Shown one piece after another: positions 1-61,822 of a stretch of 64,000 nucleotides of DNA (position 1 is its first letter; each line of letters starts with the position of its first letter). The notes beneath the pieces were generated by a model that made no database searches, had not been told where the DNA came from, and saw only the letters and a list, made by a program, of their open reading frames with translations. Both the position numbers and the translations under genes were made by a program. The stretch is from Gemmatimonadaceae bacterium (GTDB lineage: Bacteria; Gemmatimonadota; Gemmatimonadetes; Gemmatimonadales; Gemmatimonadaceae): assembly GCA_025931335.1 (NCBI GenBank), contig JAICNG010000003.1:5307-69306 (forward strand). The letters run 5' to 3'.

Positions 1-1606
1 GCGCGTCCTCGTGGCGCCCGAGGAGGGCGAGGTTGTCCGCCAGCCAGAAGCTGCACGCGAGGAAGGCGCCTTCACCGGGGGGAAGGCCATCGTCGGTGAG
101 CTCGCTGTCGTAGCGATACACCAGCCCGTCCGCGACGAGGCGCTGCTCGATGGCCGCCACCGTCCCCACGACTCTCGGATCGTCGGGGGGCAGGAAGCCG
201 ACGAGTGGTATCTGGAGGAGGCTGGCGTCGAGCTGCGAGCTGCCATACGCCTGGACGAACGAGCTCACCGACGCGTTGAATCCGCGCGCGCACACCTCGG
301 CGTGGATGTGCTCTCGCAGCTGCCGCCATCGGTCGAGCGGACCGTCAAGCGCGAAGTGCTCGGCAGTCTTGATGGCCCGGTCGAGCGCCACCCAGGCCAT
401 GACCTTCGAGTGCGTGAAATGTTGATTCGGTCCGCGAACCTCCCATATGCCGCGATCGGGCTTGTCCCACACCGTCTCGAGATAGCCGACGAGCGCCTTC
501 TGCAGGTTCCAGCCATCGCTGCCCGTTAGGCCGTGGCGACGGGCGTGGTGCAGCGCGTCGAGCACTTCGCCGAACACGTCGATCTGCAGCTGGCCGTAGG
601 CGGCATTGCCGACGCGCACCGGAAGCGATTGCTCGTATCCTTGCAGCCAGGGAACCTCCCACTCCATGAGGTGCCGCTCGCCCCCGAGTCCGTACATGAT
701 CTGTAGATCGGCGGGGTGACCCGCGACGGCGCGCAGGAGCCACTCGCGCCACGCCTGCGCCTCCTCGATGTAGCCGGCGTCCATCAGCGCCAGCAGCGTC
801 AGCGTCGCGTCTCGAAGCCAGCAGTATCGGTAATCCCAGTTCCGCCGACCGCCCGGCTGCTCGGGAAGCGACGTGGTGGGCGCGGCCACGATGCCACCGG
901 TGGGTCGGTAGGTGAGCGCCTTGAGCGTGATGAGCGAGCGCATCACCGGTTCGCGCCACTCGCCATGGTACGAGCATCGCGACGCCCACGCGGTCCAGAA
1001 CGCTTCCGTGTCGGCCAGCGCCTTCTGCGCATCGACGCCCGACGGCGGTGGCAAGTGCGACGCCCCATAGGTCATCACGAAGCACGCCGTCTCGTCGGGA
1101 CCAACCGCGAATTCGCTGACGGTGCTGAGCCCCTCGCCGCGCAAGGGCACGTTCGACCGGATGATGACCATGTCCGGTCCCGCGATCGCGCGCATCGCGC
1201 CGTCATCCAGACGCGTCACCCACGGAATGCTCGAGCCATAGTTGAATCGAAGCATCAGCTCCGAGCGCATCGCGACGCGGCCGCGCTTGCCACGCACGAT
1301 GCGCACGAGATCGGACATTGGCCCGCGGAGCGGCATGAAGTCGGTGACCGTGACCTCTCCCTCGGCGCTGACGAACGTCGTCTCGAGAATGAGGGTGTCG
1401 CGTCGATACCGGCGCGTACTCGTGGCACGAGGATCGACGGGGGCGACGCGCCACCGCCCGTTGTCCGGGGTGCCGAGCAGCGCGGCGAAGCACGCGCCGG
1501 AGTCGAACCGTGGCCAACAGAGCCAGTCGATGGAGCCGTCGAGGGATACGAGCGCCGCCGTCTCGCAATCGCCCAGCAGCGCGTAGTCTTCGATCCGGGA
1601 CGTCAC
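1..1606 (-). CDS. Glycoside hydrolase family 15 (glucoamylase/trehalase-like); C-terminus lies beyond the left window edge
   Basis: Absent from the ORF track because it runs off the edge. My minus-strand translation from GTG at 1606 gives VTSRIEDYALLGDCETAALVSLDGSIDWLCWPRFDS..., then ...NWDYRYCWLRDATLTLLALMDAGY... and ...GLPPGEGAFLACSFWLADNL, typical GH15 N-domain and (alpha/alpha)6 motifs. Third-position GC is high. Confidence 0.85.
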   Translation of the reverse strand, partial: MTSRIEDYALLGDCETAALVSLDGSIDWLCWPRFDSGACFAALLGTPDNGRWRVAPVDPRATSTRRYRRDTLILETTFVSAEGEVTVTDFMPLRGPMSDLVRIVRGKRGRVAMRSELMLRFNYGSSIPWVTRLDDGAMRAIAGPDMVIIRSNVPLRGEGLSTVSEFAVGPDETACFVMTYGASHLPPPSGVDAQKALADTEAFWTAWASRCSYHGEWREPVMRSLITLKALTYRPTGGIVAAPTTSLPEQPGGRRNWDYRYCWLRDATLTLLALMDAGYIEEAQAWREWLLRAVAGHPADLQIMYGLGGERHLMEWEVPWLQGYEQSLPVRVGNAAYGQLQIDVFGEVLDALHHARRHGLTGSDGWNLQKALVGYLETVWDKPDRGIWEVRGPNQHFTHSKVMAWVALDRAIKTAEHFALDGPLDRWRQLREHIHAEVCARGFNASVSSFVQAYGSSQLDASLLQIPLVGFLPPDDPRVVGTVAAIEQRLVADGLVYRYDSELTDDGLPPGEGAFLACSFWLADNLALLGRHEDA

Positions 1607-1607
1607 G

Positions 1608-2648
1608 CTAGGCCTCGAGATCGAGGACGACCTTCACGTCGTCCGGCTCGTCGCGGAGCGCCGCGCGCCACTCCGCCAACGGCACTCGACGCGTGATCAT
1701 CCGCGCGAGCCACGACGCGTCCGCGCGACACAGGGCATCGACCGCCGCTTCGTGGTGGCGGCGGTTCGCGTTCACAGTGCCGAAGACGACGTCGTTCTCG
1801 AGCACAATGGTGCGATTGAGCTGCGCGACATCGACGGACATCCGCTGCCCGCCGTGTGACACGCCGGTGAGGCAGACGATACCAGAGCGCGCGCTGCGTG
1901 AGAGGACATCCCAGATCACCGCGCTCGCTCCGGTGCACTCCACGATTACGTCCGCCCCATCGCTCACGTCCATCAGCTCGCCGACGTGATATTCGGCCCC
2001 GAGGGCGCGCACGAGCTCCGGCTTGATGCCGGTGGGGTCCCGATCGAACACGTGTACGGCGAGGCCGCGCTGTCGTCCGAGAAGCGCGGCCAGCAATCCG
2101 ATGGGCCCCGCTCCCGTTACTAACGCGGTGCGGGGTTTCCAGAGCGCCCGCGCGCCGATGCGCTCGATGTGCTCCCATGCCTTGGCCACGATGCTCGCCG
2201 GCTCGATGAGGACGGCGAGCATCCCGAGCGAGTGGGGCACACGCACGAGCCGCTCCGCCTCCAGACGATAGTAATCGGCGGCGAACCCGTGCCGGCGGAG
2301 GATGCCGTGCTCGGTATACTGCCCATTCCGACACATGTCCCACTCCCCCGCGGCACAGTTCGCGCACGGCACGGGATCGGGATGACGCACCATTGGGACG
2401 ACCAGATCGCCGACGTGAACTCCGCCACCCCCGTCGACGCGCTCGACTCGGCCGAGCGCCTCATGACCGAGGACGAGCCGATCCTCGCCGGGCGGTGCCT
2501 GGCCATAGTCGCCATCGACGATCTCACGGTCCGTTCCGCAGATGCCGACGGCGAGCCCGCGCACCAGCACGCTTCCCGCATCGGGAACCGGGACATCGTC
2601 GAGCCGGGCGCTGTCCGCCACACGCGGGCGCACGGTCAGCGCGCGCAT
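1608..2648 (-). CDS. Zn-dependent medium-chain dehydrogenase, glucose 1-dehydrogenase-like
   Basis: ORF 1608..2732, with the start moved to MRALTV (2648). The 28 upstream codons are Arg/Ser-rich and would overlap the divergent M23 gene. Motifs GICGTDREI, GHEALGRV and a GAGPIGLL Rossmann fold. The stop lies 1 nt before the GH15 GTG. Confidence 0.8.
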   Translation of the reverse strand: MRALTVRPRVADSARLDDVPVPDAGSVLVRGLAVGICGTDREIVDGDYGQAPPGEDRLVLGHEALGRVERVDGGGGVHVGDLVVPMVRHPDPVPCANCAAGEWDMCRNGQYTEHGILRRHGFAADYYRLEAERLVRVPHSLGMLAVLIEPASIVAKAWEHIERIGARALWKPRTALVTGAGPIGLLAALLGRQRGLAVHVFDRDPTGIKPELVRALGAEYHVGELMDVSDGADVIVECTGASAVIWDVLSRSARSGIVCLTGVSHGGQRMSVDVAQLNRTIVLENDVVFGTVNANRRHHEAAVDALCRADASWLARMITRRVPLAEWRAALRDEPDDVKVVLDLEA

Positions 2649-11922: not shown

Positions 11923-11953
11923 GGAGTTGGGAAGCTAGTCGAGCCCGGTCGGT

Positions 11954-12126
11954 GCGCCACGAGCCCTGACAGCGTTATCACAGAGGGCACAGAGACGTAG
12001 CACAGGGACTCCCAGAGAACCCCAACTGCAAGGGCTTTTCCAAAGCTTTCGCCGTTGCAGTTCCTCTGTGAGTCCCTGTGGATGTCTCTGTACTCTCTGT
12101 GATCACGCTGTCACGGCTCGTTGCGC
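11954..12126. repeat. About 170-bp imperfect palindrome with CACAGRG-type tandem words in each arm
   Basis: The left arm gcgccacgagccctgacagcgttatcacagagggcacagagacgtagcacagggactc... matches the reverse complement of the right arm gagtccctgtggatgtctctgtactctctgtgatcacgctgtcacggctcgttgcgc. The loop is near 12035-12045. Confidence 0.85.
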
Positions 12127-12143
12127 ATCGGACCCGGAACCCA

Positions 12144-14373: not shown

Positions 14374-14480
14374 CCAAGGTAAGTGCAAGGTGCTCAAGGT
14401 GCTCGAGGTGCTCAGGGTGCTCGAGGGAACGGCCCCCAACCTCGAGCACCTCGAGCACCTCGAGCACCTCGAGCACCTGG
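14374..14480. repeat. Palindrome with (GGTGCTCRA)n arms; family B copy 1
   Basis: aaggtgctcaaggtgctcgaggtgctcagggtgctcgaggg / aacggccccc / aacctcgagcacctcgagcacctcgagcacctcgagcacc. Confidence 0.9.
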
Positions 14481-14514
14481 TACAGACCCCGTACCCACCA
14501 CTAACTTTGTTCCC

Positions 14515-34985: not shown

Positions 34986-35079
34986 CTAGGTGCTCAAGGT
35001 GCTCGAGGAAGTCGAGGTGCTCGAGGTGAACGGTCCTTAACCTAGAGCACCTCGAGCACCTCGAGCACCTCGAGCACCC
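34986..35079. repeat. Palindrome with (GGTGCTCGA)n arms; family B copy 2
   Basis: ctaggtgctcaaggtgctcgaggaagtcgaggtgctcgaggtg / aacggtcctt / aacctagagcacctcgagcacctcgagcacctcgagcaccc. It fills the tamA-tamB spacer. Confidence 0.9.
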
Positions 35080-38602: not shown

Positions 38603-40153
38603 ATGCGCCGACTTCTCGCCGCGCTATTCCTCCTCGTTCCCTTCGCCTGCCGCGGGGGCGAGTCCGCTCCGCAACGTCGCACGCTGATCGACTCGAGGGA
38701 CACCTATGACCCTCGCACCCTCGATCCGGCACTCGCGACTGACGTGCCCAGCGGTCGCGCGGTGGCGTACGTCTTCGACGGCCTCACGCGCTTTACCCCC
38801 GACGCGCGGCTCGAGCCGGCGCTCGCCGAGCGCTGGGACGTATCCGCTGATGGGAAAGTATACACCTTCCACTTGCGGCGCGGCGTGCGCTTTCACGACG
38901 GAACGCCCTTCGCGGCGCGTCACGTCGTCCAGAGCTTTCACCGGGTGCTCGATCCCGCCACGAAGAGCACCGGCCCATGGGTGCTCTATCCAGTCGCCGG
39001 CGCGCGCGACTTCGCCGACCGGAAGGCGACGTCCATTCGCGGCATCGAGGCACCCGACGACTCGACCGTCCGCATCACACTCGATCAGCCGCTGGCGATC
39101 TTCCTGAAGCTCCTCGCGATGCCGGTGGCGTCGATCGTCCCCGACTCGGTGGGTCCCGACTTCCGCGAGCACCCGGTGGGCACAGGGCCGTGGAGATTCG
39201 TCGAATGGCGGCACGACGATTATCTCCTGTTCGCGAAGAACGCCGAGTACTTCGACGGTGCGCCGAAGACCGACTCGCTGCGCGCGCGCATCATCCGGGA
39301 GCCGAGCACGGCGGTCGCCGAGTTCGAGGTGGGCAACGTCGACCTACTCTACGTGCCCGAGGCGGAGACGCGACGCTGGGAACAGACCGACGAGCGGAGC
39401 GCGATGCTCTCCGCCGCGCCCGCGCTGCGCCTCTGGTACATCGGCATCAACACGACGCGCGGCCCCCTGAAGGACGTCCGCGTGCGTCAGGCGATCAACC
39501 ACGCGATCGACGTCGGCGTCATCCTCGACCGCCTCGTCGGGGGCCGCGGCCGGCATGCGGCCGGCGTGATCCCGCCCATCCTCGACGGTGCGGACACCAC
39601 GCGTCGCCCGTACGCGCACGATGTCGATCGCGCGCGGCAGCTGTTGACGCAGGCCGGATTCCCGAATGGCATCGACATCGATCTCTGGCATTCGGACAAC
39701 GAGAGCTTCTCGCGCGTCGCCCAGTCGATTCAGAGCTATCTCGGCGAAGCGGGCATTCGTGCGCGGCTGGTGCAGCGCGAGGCAGCCGCGATGCGGGCGG
39801 CGGCGCGCAACGGCGAGACCGACATGGTGCTGAAGGACTGGTACGCGGACTATCCGGACGCCGAGAATTTCCTGTACCCGCTGCTGCACACCGCGAATCG
39901 CGGGATTGGTGGGAACGTGTCGTTCTACTCGAATCCCGCGTTCGACCGTTTGGTGGATTCCTCCCGCATCGAGCTCGACAGCGCGCGGCGCGCGGAGCTG
40001 TATCGTCGCGCCGACTCGATCGCCTTCGCCGACGCGCCGATGGGGTTTCTGTTCTTCTATAACGAGCTCTACGCGGTGCAGCCGTGGGTGAGGGGCTTCC
40101 AGGTGCCCGTGATCTTCAACGGGCAGCGGTGGGTCCAGGCGGAGCTTCGGTGA
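38603..40153 (+). CDS. ABC transporter substrate-binding protein, family 5 (peptide/nickel type), lipoprotein
   Basis: ATG at 38603 inside ORF 38510..40153. Lipobox LLVPFAC and the family-5 pattern (YTFHLRRGVRFHDG...). Confidence 0.85.
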   Translation: MRRLLAALFLLVPFACRGGESAPQRRTLIDSRDTYDPRTLDPALATDVPSGRAVAYVFDGLTRFTPDARLEPALAERWDVSADGKVYTFHLRRGVRFHDGTPFAARHVVQSFHRVLDPATKSTGPWVLYPVAGARDFADRKATSIRGIEAPDDSTVRITLDQPLAIFLKLLAMPVASIVPDSVGPDFREHPVGTGPWRFVEWRHDDYLLFAKNAEYFDGAPKTDSLRARIIREPSTAVAEFEVGNVDLLYVPEAETRRWEQTDERSAMLSAAPALRLWYIGINTTRGPLKDVRVRQAINHAIDVGVILDRLVGGRGRHAAGVIPPILDGADTTRRPYAHDVDRARQLLTQAGFPNGIDIDLWHSDNESFSRVAQSIQSYLGEAGIRARLVQREAAAMRAAARNGETDMVLKDWYADYPDAENFLYPLLHTANRGIGGNVSFYSNPAFDRLVDSSRIELDSARRAELYRRADSIAFADAPMGFLFFYNELYAVQPWVRGFQVPVIFNGQRWVQAELR

Positions 40154-40155
40154 AC

Positions 40156-40283
40156 GAGGAGGCAGGAGTCAGGAGTCAGGAATCAGGGGGTGTCAGGGGG
40201 GAGGTTGCAGGAGCTGCGCGGGCCGTGCTCCTCGAACCTTCACCCTGACACCCCTGACGCCTGACTCCTGACTCCTGACCCCC
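40156..40283. repeat. Palindrome with (TCAGGAG)n arms and a structured centre; family C copy 1
   Basis: ggcaggagtcaggagtcaggaatcagggggtgtcagggggg / aggttgcaggagctgcgcgggccgtgctcctcgaacct / tcaccctgacacccctgacgcctgactcctgactcctgaccccc. It ends 1 nt before the permease ATG. Confidence 0.9.
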
Positions 40284-41204
40284 ATGTTTTCCTTCATCGC
40301 ACGCCGGCTGCTCCTCGCGATCCCCACGCTCTTCGGCGTTCTCGTCGTCGTGTTCCTGCTGTTGTACATCGCGCCCGGCGACCCCGTGATGGAGATGGTG
40401 GGTGAGCGCGCCGATGCCGAGACGATCGCGCGTCTTCGCGCGGAGCTGCGGCTCGACGATCCGGTCCCGGTGCAATTCGCCCATTACGCGGGCGGCGTGC
40501 TCACCGGCGACCTCGGCACCTCCTACATCACCGGGCGCCCGATCACGCGCGACATCCTCGAGCGATTCCCCAAGACCCTTCAGCTCGCCACGGCGGCGAT
40601 GCTGCTCGCGGCGTCCCTCGGCATCACCATTGGAGTGCTCAGCGCCCGGCGCCCGGGGAGCACGTTCGATCGGCTGGCGATGGCCGGCGCGTACCTCGGC
40701 ATCTCGTTCCCGGTCTACTGGGTGGGGCTGATCCTCATCCTCGTCTTCGCCGTCACCCTCCGCTGGCTGCCGCCGTCGGGATTCGGCCGCGTGGAGTACC
40801 TGATCCTCCCCGCCCTGGCGTTAGGCACGCGCTCGATCGCGTTCCTCGCGCGCATGACTCGCTCGGCCATGCTGGAGGTGCTCGGGAGCGACTTCGTGCG
40901 CACCGCACGGGCGAAAGGCCTGCGTGAACGGGTGGTGCTCGGGCGCCACGCGCTCCGCAACGCGCTCATCCCGATCATCACCGTGCTCGGCCTCGACTTC
41001 GGCTATTACCTCACGGGCAGCATTCTCACCGAAACGATTTTTTCGTGGCCCGGGATCGGGCGCTACGTCGTCAACGCGATCGCCCGTCGCGATCTGCCCG
41101 CGATCCAGGGGAGCGTGCTGTTCCTGAGCGTGGTCTTCGTGCTGGTGAACCTGGCGACGGACCTGTTGTATGCGAAGGCGGATCCGCGAGTGAGGTACGA
41201 CTGA
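40284..41204 (+). CDS. ABC transporter permease (DppB/OppB-like)
   Basis: ORF 40284..41204 with an EAA-like loop (RTARAKGLRERVVLGRHALRNAL). Six TM segments. Confidence 0.85.
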   Translation: MFSFIARRLLLAIPTLFGVLVVVFLLLYIAPGDPVMEMVGERADAETIARLRAELRLDDPVPVQFAHYAGGVLTGDLGTSYITGRPITRDILERFPKTLQLATAAMLLAASLGITIGVLSARRPGSTFDRLAMAGAYLGISFPVYWVGLILILVFAVTLRWLPPSGFGRVEYLILPALALGTRSIAFLARMTRSAMLEVLGSDFVRTARAKGLRERVVLGRHALRNALIPIITVLGLDFGYYLTGSILTETIFSWPGIGRYVVNAIARRDLPAIQGSVLFLSVVFVLVNLATDLLYAKADPRVRYD

Positions 41205-41211
41205 CAGAGGC

Positions 41212-41373
41212 GAAGGGGTCAAAGGGGTCGAGGGATCGAAGGGATCGAGGGGATGGAAAGGCGCCGCGGCTTCGCCGCGGCGCTCATCAGATGAGCGCGG
41301 CTCGCTGCGAAGCAGCGGCCGCGCTTTTCCATCCCCTCGATCCCTCGACCCCTTTGACCCCTTTGACCCCTTC
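41212..41373. repeat. Palindrome with GGGGTCRAG/GGGATCGAR arms enclosing three short GC hairpins; family D copy 1
   Basis: The arms gaaggggtcaaaggggtcgagggatcgaagggatcgaggggatggaaa and ttttccatcccctcgatccctcgacccctttgacccctttgaccccttc. The centre holds gcgccgcggc-ttc-gccgcggcgc, gcgctcat-cag-atgagcgc and gctgc-gaa-gcagc. Confidence 0.9.
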
Positions 41374-43609: not shown

Positions 43610-43743
43610 GGGCCGGGGTCGAGGGATCGCGGGGTCACGGGGTCGAGGGCTCGTCTCGAGATCTCGACCGACGACGTCAGGGCCGGCCATCTCGACGAGG
43701 CGCCCTCGATCCCCCCGACACCTCGACACCCCGACCCCGGTCC
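43609..43743. repeat. Palindrome with GGGGTCGAG-type arms; family D copy 2
   Basis: ggggccggggtcgagggatcgcggggtcacggggtcgaggg ... ccctcgatccccccgacacctcgacaccccgaccccgg. It shares the 15-mer GGGGTCGAGGGATCG with 41224-41238. Confidence 0.85.
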
Positions 43744-44308: not shown

Positions 44309-44369
44309 AGATTACGGATAGCGGATTGCGGCTTGAGCATCCCCATCAGCAATCCGCACTCCGCAATCT
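44309..44369. repeat. Palindrome built from GCGGATT words; family E copy 2
   Basis: gattacggatagcggattgcgg / cttgagcatccccat / cagcaatccgcactccgcaatc. Confidence 0.8.
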
Positions 44370-45729: not shown

Positions 45730-45746
45730 CGACTAGCCCGGGCCCG

Positions 45747-45849
45747 GGGCCAAGGGCCACGGGCCAAGGGGTGGGTCCGGGTTATCCGATGAGCAACCGG
45801 CGGCGCGGGAGCGCCGCCGATTGCCTTTCCACCCCCTTGGCCCGTGGCC
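45747..45849. repeat. Palindrome with GGGCCAAGG/GGCCACGG arms and a central GC hairpin
   Basis: gggccaagggccacgggccaaggggtgg ... ccggcggcgc-ggga-gcgccgccg ... ccacccccttggcccgtggcc. Confidence 0.75.
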
Positions 45850-45919
45850 ACTGACCCTCGACCCACCCACGCCGTCCCTAACCCTTAAGCCCGAAAAACG
45901 CCGGTTAGTGCGCCAACAG

Positions 45920-47470: not shown

Positions 47471-48289
47471 GTGGCCGATGCCGTGCGCGACAGCGGCCTT
47501 CCGATCGATCCGCGCGTACTGCCCGCGGCACAGATCGCCGAGACGCTCCGTCGGCTCGCCGAGTCAGGCGTTAGGCGCGCCGGCGTCTCGGGAGGGGATG
47601 GGACGATCGCGCTGGCGGCCGGCGTCGCCTCGAGCGTCGCGCTCGAGCTGGCCGTGATCCCTGGCGGCACGCTGAACCACCTCGCCCGGGACCTCGGCAT
47701 CCCGAGCGAGCTGGACGAGGCGCTTCGCGTCGCGGTTACCGGTGAGGCGCGACCCATCGATGCGGGCTCGGTGAACGGTCACCTTTTCCTCAACACCAGC
47801 TCGGTCGGGACGTACGTCACCTTCGTGCGGCTTCGCGAGCGTCTCGAGCGCTACCTCGGCTATCGCCTGGCGAGCATCGCGGCAGCCCTTCGCCTGCTCG
47901 TCCGCCCGCGCACCTTCACCGTCGAGGTCGAGGTCGAGGGAAGGTTGCGGGCCGACATCTCCCCGCTCGTGTTTGTCGGTGTCGGCGAGCGAGAGTTGAA
48001 GCTGCCAACACTCGGCGGCCGCGCCGAGGGCGGGCGACGGGGCCTGCACCTGATGATCGTGCGGGGTCGATCGCGCGCGCGTCTGGCGGCCCTGGCGTTC
48101 GCGGCGGCGGCTCGCGGAACTCGCTCCGCCATGCGGAGCCCGGCGCTCGAGGCGGTAATCGTGAACCAGTTCACGATCCGCATGCGCCGCCCGCACGGAC
48201 GCGTCGCGACCGATGGCGAGCTGAACACGATGATCGCGCCGCTGGAATACCGGTGGCTGCCGGGTGCGGTGATGGTGGTGACACCCTGA
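47471..48289 (+). CDS. Diacylglycerol-kinase-family lipid kinase paralogue
   Basis: GGDGT motif and VIPGGTLNHLARDLG. Coordinates use the first canonical start (GTG). The conserved LPLLINASAP strand lies upstream, back to a CTG at 47414 (see findings). Confidence 0.75.
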   Translation: MADAVRDSGLPIDPRVLPAAQIAETLRRLAESGVRRAGVSGGDGTIALAAGVASSVALELAVIPGGTLNHLARDLGIPSELDEALRVAVTGEARPIDAGSVNGHLFLNTSSVGTYVTFVRLRERLERYLGYRLASIAAALRLLVRPRTFTVEVEVEGRLRADISPLVFVGVGERELKLPTLGGRAEGGRRGLHLMIVRGRSRARLAALAFAAAARGTRSAMRSPALEAVIVNQFTIRMRRPHGRVATDGELNTMIAPLEYRWLPGAVMVVTP

Positions 48290-48382
48290 GAGGTGCTCAA
48301 GGTGCTCGAGGTGCCCGAGGTGCTCGAGGTGCGCTGAAGTCCCCCCTGGAGCACCTTGAGCACCTCGAGCACCTCGAGCACC
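48290..48382. repeat. Palindrome with (GGTGCTCGA)n arms; family B copy 3
   Basis: gaggtgctcaaggtgctcgaggtgcccgaggtgctcgaggtgcgc / tgaagtcccccc / tggagcaccttgagcacctcgagcacctcgagcacc. It fills the spacer from stop 48289 to start 48391. Confidence 0.9.
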
Positions 48383-48390
48383 TTTCAGTC

Positions 48391-56049: not shown

Positions 56050-57528
56050 GTGCGCCTGAGCGCGCTCGCCGGCGCCCTCGGCGTCCCGCTGTCGGGGGAA
56101 GACCGGGAGATCACGGGCATAACGCTCGATTCCCGCCAAGTGCAGCCCGGTCAACTCTTTGTCGCCATTCCCGGCGCCAACGCCGATGGAACGCGCTTCA
56201 TCCCCGATGCCCTCGAGCGCGGCGCCGTCGCCGTCTGCGCCGTCCGAGCCTGGGACGGAGTGCCCTCACTGGTCGTCGACGACCCGCGTGAGGCGCTCGC
56301 CAGGCTCGCGAGCGAGTTCCACGGTCACCCCGCGCGCGAGGTGCGCATGATCGGGATCACCGGATCGCTCGGAAAGACGTCGACCGCATTGCTGCTCGAG
56401 ACGATCATCGGCGCGGCCGGCGAGAAGGTGGGGGTGATCGGATCGCTAGGCATCCGGTTCGAGGGACACGTCGTCGAGACGGGGATGACGACACCGGAGG
56501 CGCCGGCCATTCACGGCTCGTTGCGCTACTTCGCGGCGCAGGGCGCCGGCACGGCCGTCATGGAGGTGACGTCACACTCCATCCTGCTCAAGCGCGTCGA
56601 CGGCCTCCAGTACGATCTCGGCTTGCTCACGAACATCGTGCCTTACGAGCACCTCGAGTTTCACCCCACCCCCGAGCACTACGTCCGCACGAAGACCCGC
56701 TTCTTCGGCATGCTCAAGCCGGGCGCGCCGCTGGTCGTCAACGACGATGATCCCACGGCGCGACAGGTGAGCACCGGACTGGATCGTCCGGTGATCGGCG
56801 TGTCGCTGCGCACGCGCGAGACGGCGGCGGTGCACGTGCAGCGCGTGCTGATGGGAGTGGAAGGCTCGACGTTCGCGCTCCACGTCCGGCGCCCGCTCCC
56901 GCTGCTCGACGGCGGCGAGGTGACGCCGATGACGATCCCGCTGGCGCTTCCCATCCTCGGGCGACAGCAGGTGGCCAATGCCGCGCTCGCGGCGACGGCG
57001 GCGCTCATCGCGGGCATTCCGGCGGAGACGATCGCATTCGCGCTCGCGGACGTCGAGCCGATGCACCGCCGCATGCACATCCTCTACGAGGAGGGGCCCG
57101 TGCTTCTCGACGACACCGTCGGGAACCCGGAGAGCATCCGCGCCGTCTTCGAGGCCATTCGGTCGATCCCGCACCACAATCTGCGCGTCGCGTACGCGAT
57201 TCGCGGATCGCGCGGCGTCGAGGTCAACGAGCGGAACGCCGAAGCGCTCGCGCGCGAGCTGGAGCCGATGGTTGCGACGCTGATCGTGACGGCGAGCGAC
57301 GACCACGCGAGCGAGCGGGACCGCGTGGAGGACGAGGAGCGGGATGCGGTGCTGCGCACGCTCGAGGCGACGGGCGTGCCGTTCATCTACGAGCCGACGC
57401 TCGAGCGGGCGGTGACGCGGGCGATCGAGGGCGCGGCGAGGGGAGATCTGGTCGCGCTTCTGGGGGCCCAGGGGATGGACAAGGGCGGCGAGATCGCGCG
57501 CCGGCTGCTGCCGGCTCCGAGAGTATAG
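56050..57528 (+). CDS. Mur ligase family protein, MurE-like but divergent
   Basis: GTG at 56050 inside ORF 55909..57528. GITGSLGKTST P-loop, MEVTSHS and TNIVPYEHLEFH. The C-terminal domain lacks the canonical DNPR motif. Confidence 0.7.
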   Translation: MRLSALAGALGVPLSGEDREITGITLDSRQVQPGQLFVAIPGANADGTRFIPDALERGAVAVCAVRAWDGVPSLVVDDPREALARLASEFHGHPAREVRMIGITGSLGKTSTALLLETIIGAAGEKVGVIGSLGIRFEGHVVETGMTTPEAPAIHGSLRYFAAQGAGTAVMEVTSHSILLKRVDGLQYDLGLLTNIVPYEHLEFHPTPEHYVRTKTRFFGMLKPGAPLVVNDDDPTARQVSTGLDRPVIGVSLRTRETAAVHVQRVLMGVEGSTFALHVRRPLPLLDGGEVTPMTIPLALPILGRQQVANAALAATAALIAGIPAETIAFALADVEPMHRRMHILYEEGPVLLDDTVGNPESIRAVFEAIRSIPHHNLRVAYAIRGSRGVEVNERNAEALARELEPMVATLIVTASDDHASERDRVEDEERDAVLRTLEATGVPFIYEPTLERAVTRAIEGAARGDLVALLGAQGMDKGGEIARRLLPAPRV

Positions 57529-57529
57529 A

Positions 57530-57650
57530 GGGGTCAGGAGTCAGGAGTCAGGAGGCAGGGAGTGTCAGGGAGAAGGTTGCAGGCGCGAGCCGGTCTCCTC
57601 GAACCTGCAACCTGTCCCCCCCTGCCTCCTGACTCCTGACTCCCGACCCC
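57530..57650. repeat. Palindrome with (TCAGGAG)n arms; family C copy 2
   Basis: ggggtcaggagtcaggagtcaggaggcagggagtgtcagggag / aaggttgcaggcgcgagccggtctcctcgaacctgcaacct / gtcccccctgcctcctgactcctgactcccgacccc. Confidence 0.9.
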
Positions 57651-57666
57651 TATATTGTTAGGAACC

Positions 57667-59757
57667 ATGGCCGCCACCATAGTCAAAGGCGCCTGCCCGC
57701 ACGACTGCCCCGACACCTGCGCCATGCTGGTGACGGTGGAGGATGGGCGCGCCGTGAAGGTCGCCGGCGATCCCGACCATCCCTTCACGCAGGGCTTCCT
57801 CTGCACGAAGGTCAACCGCTACGTCGAGCGGACGTATCATGCCGAGCGGCTGCTTCGGCCGCTGCGCCGCGTCGGCAGGAAGGGGGAAGGCCGGTTCGAG
57901 CCGATCTCGTGGGACGATGCGCTCGATGAGATCGCGGCGCGCCTGACGAGTATCGCGCGCTCGCCAGACGGGCCGCAGGCGATTCTGCCGTATTCGTACG
58001 CGGGCACGATGGGCTTCGTGCAGAGCTCGTCGATGGACCGGCGATTCTTCCATCTCCTCGGCGCATCGAAGCTCGATCGCACCATCTGCTCGATGGCCGG
58101 GACGATGGGAATGCGGATGACGGTCGGCGCGAACATTGGCGCCGACGCCGAGGGGATTCCGGAGAGCGATCTCGTCCTCCTGTGGGGAACGAATACCCTG
58201 ACGTCGAATCCGCACCTCTGGCCGTTCGTGCTCCAGGCGCGCGAGCGGGGCGCGCCCATCATCGCGATCGACCCGCTGCGCACGCGCACGGCCGCGCAGT
58301 GCGATGACTGGATCGCGATTCGCCCCGGCACCGACGCCGCGCTCGCCCTCGGCATCATGCACGTGGTGTTCGCCGAGGAGATGGAAGACCGCGACTATCT
58401 CGCGCAGCATACGCTCGGGGTGGAGCAGCTGCGCGACCGCGTGCTCGAGTACGACCCGGATCGCGTGTCGTCGATTACGGGCATCCCTGCGTCGCGCATC
58501 ATCGACCTCGCTCTGCGCTATGGGCAGGCTCGCGCGGCGTTCATTCGCGTCAACTACGGGCTCCAGCGGCACAAGGGCGGCGGAATGGCGGTGCGGACGA
58601 TCGCCTGTCTGCCGGCCGTGGTCGGCCATTGGCGCCGTCCGGGCGGCGGAGTACAGCTGTCCACCAGCGCGAACTTCCAGTTCGACAAGAACACGCTCGA
58701 GCGCCCCGACCTCTCACCTCCGGTTCGCACGATCAACATGATCCGGCTCGGCGAGGCACTGACGACGCCGAACGCCGGCGTTGGCGGACCGCCGGTGCGC
58801 GCGATGATCGTGTACAACTCGAATCCCGCCGCCGTCGCGCCCGACCGGAACGCGGTCATGCGCGGGCTCGCGCGCGAGGATCTGTTCACGGTGGTGCTCG
58901 ACCACTTCCAGACCGATACGGCGGACTGGGCGGACATCGTCCTGCCGGCGACGACGCAGCTGGAGCACTGGGATCTCCATTTGGCGTACGGCCACCACTA
59001 CGTGTCGCTGAATCGCCCGTCGATCGAGCCGGTGGGCGAAGCGAAGCCGAACTCCGAGATCTTCCGTCTGCTGGCCGCGCGGATGGGAATGAACCACCCC
59101 GCGCTTCGCGACGACGATTTAACCGTGATTCGTCAGGCGATCGAGGGCGCGACGCCCGGCGCATGGCAGGCGGAGAAGCTCCGCGGGGTCACGATGGAGG
59201 CGCTGCTCGAGCGGGGCTGGATGCGCCTCAACGTTCCGAAGCCGTATCTGCCGTTCGCGGACGGCAGGTTCCTCACGCCGAGCGGCAAGTGCGAGTTCTA
59301 CTCCGAGCGGATGAAGGAGATGGGACTCGATCCGCTGCCATCGTTCACCGCGCCGTACGAGTTCCCGGAAGATGTCCCGGCGCTGGCGTCGCGCTTTCCA
59401 CTGACGCTCATCTCGTCGCCGGCGCACCAGTTCCTGAACTCGACGTTCGTGAACATCGGCGCCCTGCGCCGCGCCGCTCGCGAGCCGGAGCTGATGATCC
59501 ACCCGAGCGACGCCGAGCCGCGCGGCATCGCCACCGGCATGCGGGTGGTGGTGCATAACGACCGTGGCGAGTTCACGGCCGTGGCCCGGGTCGATGAGTC
59601 GGTGCGCGCGACGGTGGTGTGGGCGCCGTCGATCTGGTGGGCGAAGTACGCGGCCGATGGCCAGAACGCGAACGCGACGACGTCGCAGCTCGAGACCGAC
59701 ATGGGACATGGGCCGGTGTTCTACGACAACCTGGTGGAGGTGATGGCGGCGGATTGA
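57667..59757 (+). CDS. Molybdopterin (bis-MGD) oxidoreductase family protein with an N-terminal Fe-S motif
   Basis: CPHDCPDTCAMLV cluster motif, molybdopterin-binding domains, and a C-terminal MopB_CT-like barrel. Confidence 0.8.
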   Translation: MAATIVKGACPHDCPDTCAMLVTVEDGRAVKVAGDPDHPFTQGFLCTKVNRYVERTYHAERLLRPLRRVGRKGEGRFEPISWDDALDEIAARLTSIARSPDGPQAILPYSYAGTMGFVQSSSMDRRFFHLLGASKLDRTICSMAGTMGMRMTVGANIGADAEGIPESDLVLLWGTNTLTSNPHLWPFVLQARERGAPIIAIDPLRTRTAAQCDDWIAIRPGTDAALALGIMHVVFAEEMEDRDYLAQHTLGVEQLRDRVLEYDPDRVSSITGIPASRIIDLALRYGQARAAFIRVNYGLQRHKGGGMAVRTIACLPAVVGHWRRPGGGVQLSTSANFQFDKNTLERPDLSPPVRTINMIRLGEALTTPNAGVGGPPVRAMIVYNSNPAAVAPDRNAVMRGLAREDLFTVVLDHFQTDTADWADIVLPATTQLEHWDLHLAYGHHYVSLNRPSIEPVGEAKPNSEIFRLLAARMGMNHPALRDDDLTVIRQAIEGATPGAWQAEKLRGVTMEALLERGWMRLNVPKPYLPFADGRFLTPSGKCEFYSERMKEMGLDPLPSFTAPYEFPEDVPALASRFPLTLISSPAHQFLNSTFVNIGALRRAAREPELMIHPSDAEPRGIATGMRVVVHNDRGEFTAVARVDESVRATVVWAPSIWWAKYAADGQNANATTSQLETDMGHGPVFYDNLVEVMAAD

Positions 59758-59798
59758 TGGGTTTGTGCAAGGTTCGATGTGGCGGGTCGAAGAGCCGA

Positions 59799-60281
59799 CC
59801 ACGGATATACACGAATGAGCACGGATCCGCCCGCCCTGAAGCTGGTTGCAGTGCGCACCACCGAAACGACCCGTGCAGTCATCGGTTCGTTTTTCGAGGT
59901 GTACAATGAGCTCGGAACCGGGTTCCTCGAATCGGTCTATCGGAACGCGCTTTCGGTCGCGCTGGATCAGCTGGGGATTGCAAACCGCCGAGAGGCGCCG
60001 TTGGATGTGTTTTTCCGAGGAGCACGTGTCGGCCTCTTTCGTGCCGATATCCTCGTGAATGATTGCGTCGTGGTCGAGACCAAAGCCGCGCATGCCTTGG
60101 ACCGGTCTCACGAGGCGCAGCTTATCAACTACCTGCGCGCATCTTCGATTGAGGTCGGACTGCTCCTCAATTTCGGGCCCGAGGCAAAGTTCCGACGCCT
60201 GGTTTACACGAACGACCGCAAGGCGCTCTATCTCTGGTCACAGGCGTCTGTCGATCCGTGAAGATTCGTGTCAATCCGTGG
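59799..60281 (+). mobile_element. Candidate GxxExxY cassette bounded by 29-bp inverted repeats, each made of three 10-bp-phased ACACGRAT units
   Basis: Left repeat ccacggatatacacgaatgagcacggatc (59799-59827). The reverse complement of the right repeat (60253-60281) is ccacggattgacacgaatcttcacggatc, 24/29 identical. The ORF start and stop lie inside the repeats. Confidence 0.45.
59815..60261 (+). CDS. GxxExxY protein (PD-(D/E)XK nuclease fold)
   Basis: VIGSFFEVYNELGTGFLESVYRNAL (GxxExxY), then ADILVNDCVVVETKA and QLINYL; the D..E.K core. Confidence 0.8.
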   Translation: MSTDPPALKLVAVRTTETTRAVIGSFFEVYNELGTGFLESVYRNALSVALDQLGIANRREAPLDVFFRGARVGLFRADILVNDCVVVETKAAHALDRSHEAQLINYLRASSIEVGLLLNFGPEAKFRRLVYTNDRKALYLWSQASVDP

Positions 60282-60349
60282 TTCGCAGGGCCACTGGCGC
60301 GATGAAGTACGCTCGCCCATCCTGAAGAAGCACCCAAACGGAGCACACG

Positions 60350-61822
60350 TTGCAGACGCAGCAGCACCCCACGACGCTCGGCGCCCTCAAGCGCTCGCCC
60401 TATGCCACGCGCGCCAAGCGCACGGTCAAGGACGAGCTGCGCGAGAATCTCCTCCAGCGGCTCGCGCGCGGAGGGGCACTGTTCGAGGGCGTCATCGGCT
60501 ATGAGGACACCGTCCTGCCGCAGCTGGTCAACGCCATCCTCGCCAGGCACAACTTCATTCTCCTCGGCCTGCGCGGACAGGCGAAGTCTCGCATTCTGCG
60601 CTCGCTCGTCACGCTGCTCGACGACACCATTCCCATCGTCGCCGGGAGTGAGATCAACGACGATCCCTTCGCGCCCATCTCGAAGCAGGCGCACCAGTTG
60701 ATCGAGGAGGCGGGGGACGACACACCGATCGCGTGGATCGGGCGCGATCAGCGCTATGTCGAGAAGCTGGCGACGCCCGACGTCACTATCGCCGACATCA
60801 TCGGCGACGTCGACCCGATCAAGGCCGCGCGCGGCGGCCACATTCTCTCCGACGAGCTCACCATCCATTACGGGATGCTGCCGCGCGCGAACCGTGGCAT
60901 CTTCGCGCTCAACGAGCTGCCCGATCTCGCCGGAAAGATCCAGGTGGGATTGTTCAACATCATGCAGGAAGGGGATGTCCAGATCAAAGGCTATCCCGTT
61001 CGCATCCCCCTCGACGTGCTCCTCTGCTTCACCGCCAATCCCGAGGATTACACCGCGCGCGGGAAGATCATCACTCCGCTCAAGGATCGCATCGGCAGCG
61101 AGATCATGACGCACTATCCCGAGTCGGTCGAGGTCGGGATGGAGATCACGCAGCAGGAGGCCTGGACCACGCGCGGCTCGCTTCCCGTGCGCGTGCCCGA
61201 CTTCATCGCCGAGGTCATCGAGCGCGTCGCGTTCGAGGCGCGCACGGACAAGCGCGTCGACAAACGCTCCGGCGTCTCGCAGCGCATGCCGATCACCGTG
61301 CTCGAGAGCGTCGTGTCGAACGCCGAGCGTCGCGCCGTGGAACGGCATGAGTGCACGGTCGTGCCGCGCGTGTCCGACATCTATGCCGCGCTGCCGTCCA
61401 TTACCGGCAAGATCGAGCTGGAGTACGAGGGGGAGCTCATCGGCGGTCAGGTGATCGCGCGCGAGCTCATCCGTCGTGCGGCCGACGCGACCTTCCAGGC
61501 GCGCGCCGGCGGCTCCGACACGGACGAGATCGTGATGTGGTTCGACACCGGCAATGCGCTCGAGGTGCCTGACGACGCCGCCAGCGAGCCGCTCGCGGGG
61601 GCGTTCGAGGATGTGCCGACGCTGCTCGAGCTGGTCCACGGAGTTGGGCTCGCGCAGCAGGGGGACACCGAGACGACCGTCGCCGCCTGCGAGCTCGTGC
61701 TCGAGGCGCTCGTGGGCCGGCGGAAGATCTCCCGCTCCGACGCGGGACGGTATGGTCGCGCGCAGCCGCCGGAGCGCCGCCGGCCGAACGATCTCTTCGG
61801 CAGCGGCGGCATGACCGCCTGA
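60350..61822 (+). CDS. ChlI/BchI-like AAA+ protein with deviant Walker motifs and a long C-terminal extension
   Basis: TTG start preceded by GGAG. Sequence VIGYEDTVLPQLVNAILARHNFILLGLRGQAKSR (P-loop GLRGQAKS), GIFALNELPDL (Walker B reads NE), VSQRMPITV. Confidence 0.7.
   Translation: MQTQQHPTTLGALKRSPYATRAKRTVKDELRENLLQRLARGGALFEGVIGYEDTVLPQLVNAILARHNFILLGLRGQAKSRILRSLVTLLDDTIPIVAGSEINDDPFAPISKQAHQLIEEAGDDTPIAWIGRDQRYVEKLATPDVTIADIIGDVDPIKAARGGHILSDELTIHYGMLPRANRGIFALNELPDLAGKIQVGLFNIMQEGDVQIKGYPVRIPLDVLLCFTANPEDYTARGKIITPLKDRIGSEIMTHYPESVEVGMEITQQEAWTTRGSLPVRVPDFIAEVIERVAFEARTDKRVDKRSGVSQRMPITVLESVVSNAERRAVERHECTVVPRVSDIYAALPSITGKIELEYEGELIGGQVIARELIRRAADATFQARAGGSDTDEIVMWFDTGNALEVPDDAASEPLAGAFEDVPTLLELVHGVGLAQQGDTETTVAACELVLEALVGRRKISRSDAGRYGRAQPPERRRPNDLFGSGGMTA

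Follow-up and report, generated by a model that had tools for sequence, protein, structure and literature searches.

At the locus considered here, a small gene of the GxxExxY family is enclosed between two inverted arrays of short DNA units and lies wedged between a molybdopterin oxidoreductase gene and a gene for an AAA+/chelatase-like ATPase. The locus belongs to a stretch of 64,000 nt from a Gemmatimonadaceae bacterium (contig JAICNG010000003.1, positions 5,307 to 69,306), which was analysed as a whole and is referred to as the window. The gene together with its two arrays is termed the cassette (Table 1). A sequence-only reading of the window had noticed that the open reading frame (ORF) is bracketed by inverted repeats, identical at 24 of 29 positions and each built from three units at exact 10-bp spacing, with the start and the stop of the ORF placed inside the repeats. 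All of this is borne out by the repeat search. The arms comprise 30 nt each, are complementary at 25 of the 30 positions (83%) and have 425 nt between them; among 300 random pairs of window segments taken at equal distance, the best reached 21 of 30. In each arm, three heptamers (CACGGAT, CACGAAT, CACGGAT) follow one another at a phase of exactly 10 nt, and all five arm-to-arm mismatches fall into the 3-nt spacers. The middle units of both arms carry the identical G-to-A variant, a match that is broken in a relative of 98% identity (L081). The ATG of the ORF is placed at the spacer between left units 2 and 3, and its stop codon TGA (60259-60261) is placed inside the first right-hand unit.

Over the whole window, the heptamer shows no enrichment (18 occurrences compared to 20 expected); it clusters at the cassette only. 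With a GC content of about 58-59% and a GC content at third codon positions (GC3) of 0.70, the cassette departs from its neighbours (GC 67%, GC3 0.88-0.89). Packing is tight, the oxidoreductase stop lying 40 nt before the left arm and the ATPase start 67 nt after the right arm. When the segment 59790-60290 is folded as single-stranded DNA, the arms are paired in both the minimum-free-energy and the centroid structure. Neither a sigma-70-like promoter nor an intrinsic terminator was found in 59500-60500, no Rfam family matched over the cassette or its arms, and the 64-kb window holds no cognate gene-less hairpins.

Table 1. Coordinates of the cassette, its neighbours and the other palindromes of the window
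Feature	Position	Strand	Basis
Whole cassette (left array, GxxExxY ORF, right array)	59798-60282	+	inverted-repeat search
Left arm, ACCACGGAT-ATA-CACGAAT-GAG-CACGGATC	59798-59827	+	repeat search
Left-arm heptamer units	59800-59806, 59810-59816, 59820-59826	+	
Right arm, GATCCGTG-AAG-ATTCGTG-TCA-ATCCGTGGT	60253-60282	-	repeat search
Right-arm units (minus-strand reading)	60254-60260, 60264-60270, 60274-60280	-	
GxxExxY ORF, 148 aa plus stop	59815-60261	+	TIGR04256 and PF13366 matches
Upstream neighbour, molybdopterin oxidoreductase	57655-59757	+	Pfam PF04879, PF00384, PF01568
Downstream neighbour, 490-aa AAA+/chelatase-like ATPase, TTG start	60350-61822	+	weak family assignment
Gene-less tandem-unit palindromes	11950-12130, 14378-14488, 34988-35078, 40148-40299, 41212-41373, 42412-42536		
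Gene-less tandem-unit palindromes (continued)	43610-43743, 44310-44368, 45740-45864, 48286-48388, 57525-57655		

The GxxExxY protein

The ORF product is a clear member of TIGR04256 (E 2.7e-36, 124.5 bits at a cut-off of 35) and of PF13366 (E 1.1e-36, 126.2 bits at a cut-off of 22), the latter being the sole Pfam family in the protein, and it has the PD-(D/E)XK fold. The residues that give the family its name (G36, E39, Y42) and the putative catalytic D...ExK residues (D78, E88, K90) occupy invariant columns of the family alignment. An AlphaFold (AF2) model with a pLDDT of 85.5 displays an alpha-beta nuclease core whose nearest folds are Cas4 SSO0001 (4ic1, E 4e-6, TM 0.51), lambda-exonuclease-like enzymes and MGME1, all of them RecB-type PD-(D/E)XK nucleases acting on DNA ends and flaps. 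At the level of sequence, the Cas4 models gave insignificant matches (E 0.01-0.06), as did the PADLOC and PHROGs libraries; the search of PDB sequences returned only S100 proteins, dismissed as chance, and thus no solved relative, and viral contigs scanned with the family alignment contained no relatives. The family is large: the protein search yielded 2,857 relatives, and 27,326 clusters at 50% identity were counted in the library searched (E <= 0.001). A 2012 fold survey records it as 'unknown, multiple transfers' (PMC3424549). Beyond that survey, our literature search returned incidental mentions only, with no function or context assigned to GxxExxY/PDDEXK_3, and a search for an earlier description of such elements gave nothing relevant.

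The ends of the relatives are peculiar. Frequent N-termini read MNTDKHG, MSTD or INADERG, and frequent C-termini read ...KKIRVDPRESAA, ...SIRENPCLSVA or ...IRVDPRESAA. These odd peptides, of a kind that the sequence-only reading had described for other phyla and had traced to repeats, are translated CACGGAT-type units at 10-nt phase, a point of relevance for the annotation of many database entries. Several database proteins (P0121-P0125, P0176, P0200, P0210, P0233, P0246 and P0267) carry two GxxExxY domains within 250-276 aa; they probably represent read-through of tandem cassettes.

Family-wide link of gene and arrays

In a scan of one genome per species, with the window's own genome outside the collection, 80 homologous loci of 48-68% identity were obtained from Gemmatimonadota, Acidobacteriota, Planctomycetota, Bacteroidota, Chloroflexota, Pseudomonadota, Nitrospirota and Ignavibacteriota. 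An inverted repeat with a score of at least 14 brackets the ORF in 52 of the 73 usable loci (71%), compared to 1 of 372 control positions (0.3%) drawn from the same loci, just as expected from the earlier proposal that GxxExxY homologues are flanked by phased inverted arrays of heptamers. The units, with a family consensus of C-R-C-N-G-A-T and usually three per arm, peak in forward orientation just before the ORF and in reverse orientation at its end, at 20-23 per 10-nt bin compared to about 0.7 expected (about 30-fold). Within 452 kb around GxxExxY genes, 140 arrays of at least three units were counted; the 397 kb of Gemmatimonadota control loci held 0, shuffled sequences contain none, and in the window just the two arms of the cassette qualify. 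When tandem-periodic inverted repeats with loops of at least 250 nt were searched for in an unbiased manner, arms of C-R-C-N-G-A-T arrays were recovered almost exclusively, the output consisting of pairs that bracket GxxExxY, a few cross-pairings with adjacent hairpins and a single pair of 7-nt period. Gene and arrays thus travel together across at least eight phyla, and the arrays are essentially confined to the vicinity of GxxExxY genes and to gene-less hairpins that share the unit.

The idea that the units are phased at one helical turn is upheld exactly at the cassette and describes the commonest case in homologues (10 nt in 101 unit pairs); it does not cover the 9-nt period of 39 pairs or the 8-nt period in Sphingomonas. 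Distant plasmid members retain the architecture with other units, namely RCGCGARG at 8-nt period in Sphingomonas, and CACAGAG serves as the arm unit in Bacteroides finegoldii (L183) and Bernardetia (L181). The suggested kinship to 23S rRNA intervening sequences found no counterpart in genomic context: no rRNA gene harbours or adjoins any of the 80 homologous loci, and the window region gave no rRNA hit.

Two further items concern arms of other kinds. The 7-nt-period pair is located on an Anaerolineae contig (L036 5005-5971) and consists of two short palindromes of GGCTGTC-type units, about 900 nt apart and mutually complementary. A candidate for a second gene within such arms (L007 96-493) was rejected as chance pairing within an ordinary gene.

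Insertion site, inheritance and genomic context

Empty sites at the junction of oxidoreductase and ATPase, which the sequence-only reading had proposed as a check, were found when metagenomes were probed with the downstream AAA+ protein. In four contigs (L082-L085), just 60-80 nt separate the oxidoreductase stop from the AAA+ start, without cassette or arrays, at a divergence too great for base-by-base alignment of the empty sites. The cassette occupies the identical junction in L081 (98% protein identity), L001, L172, L174 and the contigs of P0017 and P0021, with identities of 61-78% for P0002, P0012, P0017 and P0021, whose contigs all have it there; the oxidoreductase lies upstream of it in all relatives of the clade. 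For L001, a Gemmatimonadaceae metagenome-assembled genome (MAG), identity to the window is 68% for GxxExxY, 87% for the oxidoreductase and 92% for the AAA+ protein. All five readable orthologues have three units per arm and the ATG between units 2 and 3; five of the six L001 units read CACGGAC/GTCCGTG, the middle left unit CACGGAA. The presence of the cassette at the same junction throughout the clade, together with the empty sister sites, is explained by a single old event, either an insertion or, at the same age, a loss in the sister group, after which the cassette descended vertically. Another lineage (L103 1976-2501) has a 525-nt non-coding insert at this junction, containing (AACGGC)n runs; it is bounded by inverted arms of about 45 nt with CACGGAA-type units (ATCACGGAACTGAACTGCCACGGAA...), and no convincing ORF was found in its interior.

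Elsewhere, cassettes interrupt essential operons. In Terriglobia, where it has an equally old and vertical history, the cassette lies between ispD and ispF in about 20 genomes (e.g., L014 2929-3414) and in L162-L171, and in Sphingomonas parapaucimobilis it lies between fabD and fabG (L179 1429-1865). In these operon insertions, the stop codon of the preceding gene adjoins the left arm, and 10-16 nt separate the right arm from the start of the following gene. Five pairs of loci encode proteins of 70-79% identity in flanks that lack detectable similarity by tblastx (L010/L046, L032/L069, L005/L019, L008/L024, L003/L048); related proteins in unrelated contexts imply that the package relocates or is transferred on an evolutionary time scale. 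Inspection by eye of the window and about 48 elements revealed no target-site duplications outside the arms. In 40 of 75 loci, and likewise in all six annotated plasmid loci, the gene points in the same direction as both of its neighbours, and from this arrangement we infer that it is probably expressed by read-through from the host operon.

Gene-less hairpins and deletion derivatives

Repeat pairs devoid of the ORF, which the sequence-only reading had anticipated, do exist. The 3-kb flanks of the loci contain 21 short hairpins of the same unit with loops of 16-145 nt. In L045 (2733-3684), a full GxxExxY element stands in tandem between two near-identical 200-nt copies. The short copies keep remnants of the ORF (VYNELG and RKRIRVNP), and these retained ends identify them as internal-deletion derivatives; L045 is a MAG contig in which an assembly artefact is possible. 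A Prolixibacteraceae locus (L050 190-3480) harbours two GxxExxY genes that are 93% identical, each with complete hairpins of the opposite polarity on its flanks, a minority type seen in 8 of 59 elements. Within 6 kb, five gene-less hairpins are interleaved there with toxin-antitoxin-like and nucleotidyltransferase genes, and the region looks like an island of accessory genes.

The cultured Gemmatirosa kalamazoonensis has a hairpin of three CGCGGAT units after its GxxExxY gene. By BLAST, this hairpin is placed at 6 positions on plasmid 1 and 11 on plasmid 2, both of which are megaplasmids, compared to 2 and 0 positions, respectively, for the gene. One of the plasmid 2 copies (L184) is a hairpin of 4 + 3 units with no GxxExxY gene within 20 kb.

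Selection and co-variation of the arms

The ratio of nonsynonymous to synonymous substitution rates (dN/dS) of the protein is 0.07-0.22, the value for the window and L001 being 0.22. In this comparison (window 59815-60258, L001 3001-3423), the GxxExxY gene shows a dS of 1.16, about twice that of its neighbours (0.52 and 0.57); codon bias may be weaker in this gene, or a diverged allele may have taken the place of the cassette at this position. Even between orthologues with saturated synonymous sites (dS about 2), the non-coding left arm remains intact. Purifying selection acts on the protein and on the arms alike.

Within one element, identity between the arms is 93% in the units and 61% in the spacers. 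In 23 Terriglobia orthologues the arms co-vary, with 59 double-sided cells compared to 24.9 ± 4 upon shuffling (0/500); the signal collapses in slid controls, and one position pair reads A-U in 12 cases, G-C in 9 and otherwise in 1. At variable unit positions, concordance is 0.88 in register, a figure favoured by the method of arm alignment, 0.82 out of register, 0.83 within an arm and 0.51 between elements. The main signal in these values is that the units of one element are kept alike. Among arm mismatches, G:T and A:C were counted at 35 and 31 in one analysis and at 24 and 27 in another. Selected RNA stems normally show an excess of G:U over A:C; the lack of a G:T excess thus argues against a selected sense-RNA stem and for a constraint at the level of DNA.

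Other palindromes of the window

Many intergenic gaps of the window are filled by palindromes made of tandem 7-9-nt units, a centre and inverted units, with unit sequences such as AGGTGCTCG, AGGAGTC, AGGGATCG and GGGCCAA. The kinship to the cassette that had been proposed for them holds for geometry and fails for sequence: C-R-C-N-G-A-T units are absent from all of them. The palindrome situated just after the AAA+ gene is built from TCGGGAA in L084, GACGGGA in L085, CAGACRT in L110, L114 and L117, and AAGCCRT in L123 and L131. Since the units differ at one orthologous site, the other palindromes are understood as a separate, fast-evolving class in which sequences are replaced and the architecture persists. 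The palindrome at 11950-12130 is composed of CACAGAG, CACAGGG and CCAGAG units, the first of which is the arm unit in L183 and L181; this sharing of a unit may mark the palindrome as a gene-less representative of another GxxExxY subfamily, or be coincidental.

Discussion

Based on the evidence obtained in this study, the cassette is best understood as a widespread element of hairpin type, comprising a nuclease gene, its cognate inverted heptamer arrays and non-autonomous gene-less derivatives, which is inherited mostly vertically and relocates occasionally. We assign this interpretation a probability of roughly 55%. The element looks like a previously undescribed one. To proceed, the proposed mechanism would require the nuclease to recognise the arrays themselves or a hairpin or cruciform of DNA formed by them, and to cut there, whereby copies of the element would be driven or maintained. 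The host would have to supply joining or repair, and gene-less hairpins would arise as non-autonomous derivatives. The relation between nuclease and array would then resemble that of a RAYT to its REPINs, implemented with a different enzyme. A conserved and selected DNA architecture, together with gene-less copies, turns an anonymous family into a concrete hypothesis of substrate and mechanism.

Several points weigh against this interpretation. Binding and cutting of the arrays by the nuclease are steps that we infer, and a lone PD-(D/E)XK domain of 130 aa is not known to have a joining (strand-transfer) activity. Neither a target-site duplication nor a defined target was found at the elements inspected. 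The cassettes of the window clade and of the Terriglobia ispD-ispF site are stable in position down to protein identities of 61% and about 50%, respectively; mobility must therefore be rare at best, and selection at the level of the host could equally maintain them. The weak gap between concordance in and out of register leaves base pairing of the arms unproven. Uniform units could also result from slippage and gene conversion alone, with no protein involved, and divergence of unit variants tracks that of the protein no better than shared ancestry predicts. Copy number per genome is a partial measurement, made on the two megaplasmids of Gemmatirosa, and the other gene-less hairpins mostly lie within 3 kb of the gene and could be local duplications. 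As regards the suggestion of an autonomous element, a long-term vertical resident that lacks target-site duplication and whose protein domain has no known joining activity makes it doubtful.

Among other explanations, two appear improbable to a similar degree. The arms might act in RNA, pairing within the operon mRNA to form a stem that is cut (e.g., by RNase III) or that insulates the insert, which would make the cassette tolerable inside operons in the manner of an ORF-bearing 23S rRNA intervening sequence. Co-directionality with the neighbours, close packing between the genes of operons, absence of a promoter and terminator of its own in the segment searched and the predicted pairing of the arms would all suit such a role; the mismatch pattern does not, and the conservation of units over spacers goes far beyond what pairing needs. 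The hairpins dispersed on a replicon that lacks the gene, the missing Rfam match and the missing rRNA context speak against it as well. Alternatively, the gene could encode a nuclease of benefit to the host and be an ordinary accessory gene acquired by horizontal transfer, with the heptamers serving as operator-like sites for auto-regulation or DNA looping. Purifying selection on protein and arrays at vertically inherited loci, the ATG embedded in the left array of every member of the window clade and the spacing of three sites in each arm by roughly one helical turn, as is typical of cooperative binding, are in line with this proposal. Against it, gene-less hairpins and deletion derivatives retain arrays with no gene to regulate, periods of 9 and 8 nt are also found, and what the arrays enclose is the entire gene, not a promoter, for which the search was negative.

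Still less probable is that the arrays are ends or recombination sites of a transposase or recombinase acting in trans, with GxxExxY as passenger cargo comparable to attC gene cassettes. Symmetric ends lacking an obvious joining enzyme in the element would be accounted for, as would the cassette-array appearance of the Prolixibacteraceae locus, where hairpins separate the two GxxExxY copies and the toxin-antitoxin-like genes. However, GxxExxY is the only gene found in array loops, both in the 452 kb of flanks and in the unbiased scan, and arrays are absent from the related control DNA; no recombinase gene was noticed in the inspected loci, which were not scanned for one systematically. That the arms are one more generic intergenic palindrome, into which the gene landed by chance, is largely refuted and retains very little probability. 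The window does hold at least 11 gene-less tandem-unit palindromes in intergenic gaps, and similar ones are common in related Gemmatimonadota contigs, yet these have other units at periods of 7-9 nt that differ among relatives at the same site, whereas the GxxExxY arms keep C-R-C-N-G-A-T across phyla and show it nowhere else in the window.

A bolder extension of the hairpin-element interpretation is offered only tentatively. GxxExxY nucleases might be the RAYT-equivalents of a second, unrecognised and very widespread class of bacterial hairpin repeats, in which each subfamily would recognise its own phased array as hairpin or cruciform, cut it and so spread gene-less palindromes; the cognate units would be C-R-C-N-G-A-T here, CACAGAG in Bacteroides and Bernardetia, and RCGCGARG in Sphingomonas. 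If true, a family of about 27,000 sequence clusters would gain a function, and the tandem-unit palindromes between genes of Gemmatimonadota, Acidobacteriota and Bacteroidota would, at least in part, gain an origin, possibly including the CACAGAG-type palindrome at 11950-12130. Apart from this extension, the element itself may constitute an independent case of the long-lived relationship between nuclease and repeat known from RAYT and REPIN.

Relation to known systems

Comparison with other mobile or nuclease-linked systems shows partial analogies in each case. Transposons with terminal inverted repeats and their miniature derivatives (MITEs), Tn7 with its PD-(D/E)XK nuclease TnsA being an example, share terminal inverted repeats of repeated short sites, derivatives that keep the ends upon internal deletion (here in L045), and presence or absence at a given junction. 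The cassette differs from them in having no visible target-site duplication, in a size of only about 0.5 kb and in lacking a DDE or other joining enzyme, its coding capacity being limited to the 148-aa nuclease domain. The intervening sequences of 23S rRNA (Coxiella, Leptospira; PMC4990558) likewise place a small ORF within complementary arms and are tolerated in an essential transcribed unit. Their protein, however, is a four-helix bundle of another family, and they are separated from the GxxExxY loci by genomic context and by the mismatch pattern, which here is against an RNA stem. Free-standing homing endonuclease genes (seg and mob of T4; the PD-(D/E)XK enzyme I-Ssp6803I) correspond to the cassette as a selfish nuclease gene wedged between conserved genes, present or absent at one site (absent in L082-L085), with a dS above that of the neighbours; unlike it, they have no conserved inverted arrays and leave no gene-less hairpin copies. 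To Cas4 and RecB nucleases the resemblance is one of structure and of the D...ExK motif, whereas CRISPR context is missing from the cassette and the Fe-S cysteines of Cas4 are not evident on reading the 148-aa sequence, for which no dedicated test was made. Integron gene cassettes are distinguished by attC R''/R' core sites (RYYYAAC...GTTRRRY), which were not seen on reading the GxxExxY arms, and by an integrase, no gene for which was noticed in the inspected loci, although no dedicated scan was made.

The closest parallel is that to REPIN-RAYT systems (PMC3116915; bioRxiv 10.1101/2022.05.22.493013). Common to both are a small gene, usually of low copy number, that is flanked by inverted cognate repeats, gene-less hairpin copies, long vertical persistence and a repeat sequence that varies by subfamily. 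As in REPIN-RAYT genomes, the dispersed hairpins may outnumber the gene; they do so on the two Gemmatirosa megaplasmids (17 to 2 places), whereas the 64-kb window has none. The enzymes are nonetheless distinct, RAYT being an HUH/Y1 (IS200-like) transposase and the GxxExxY protein a PD-(D/E)XK nuclease with PF13366 as its only family. A RAYT repeat is a single REP hairpin, whereas each arm of the cassette is a phased array of three heptamers. The GxxExxY gene, moreover, sits in the loop of one long inverted repeat, and any mobility of its element is putative. One of the GxxExxY contigs also contains a textbook RAYT-type locus of its own (L019 1403-2051), in which an IS200-like gene (1519-1962, minus strand, HVHLL motif) stands between two inverted copies of the Acido-Lenti-1 motif (RF01687); judging from this arrangement, the 'sRNA' motif seems to be a RAYT's REP sequence.

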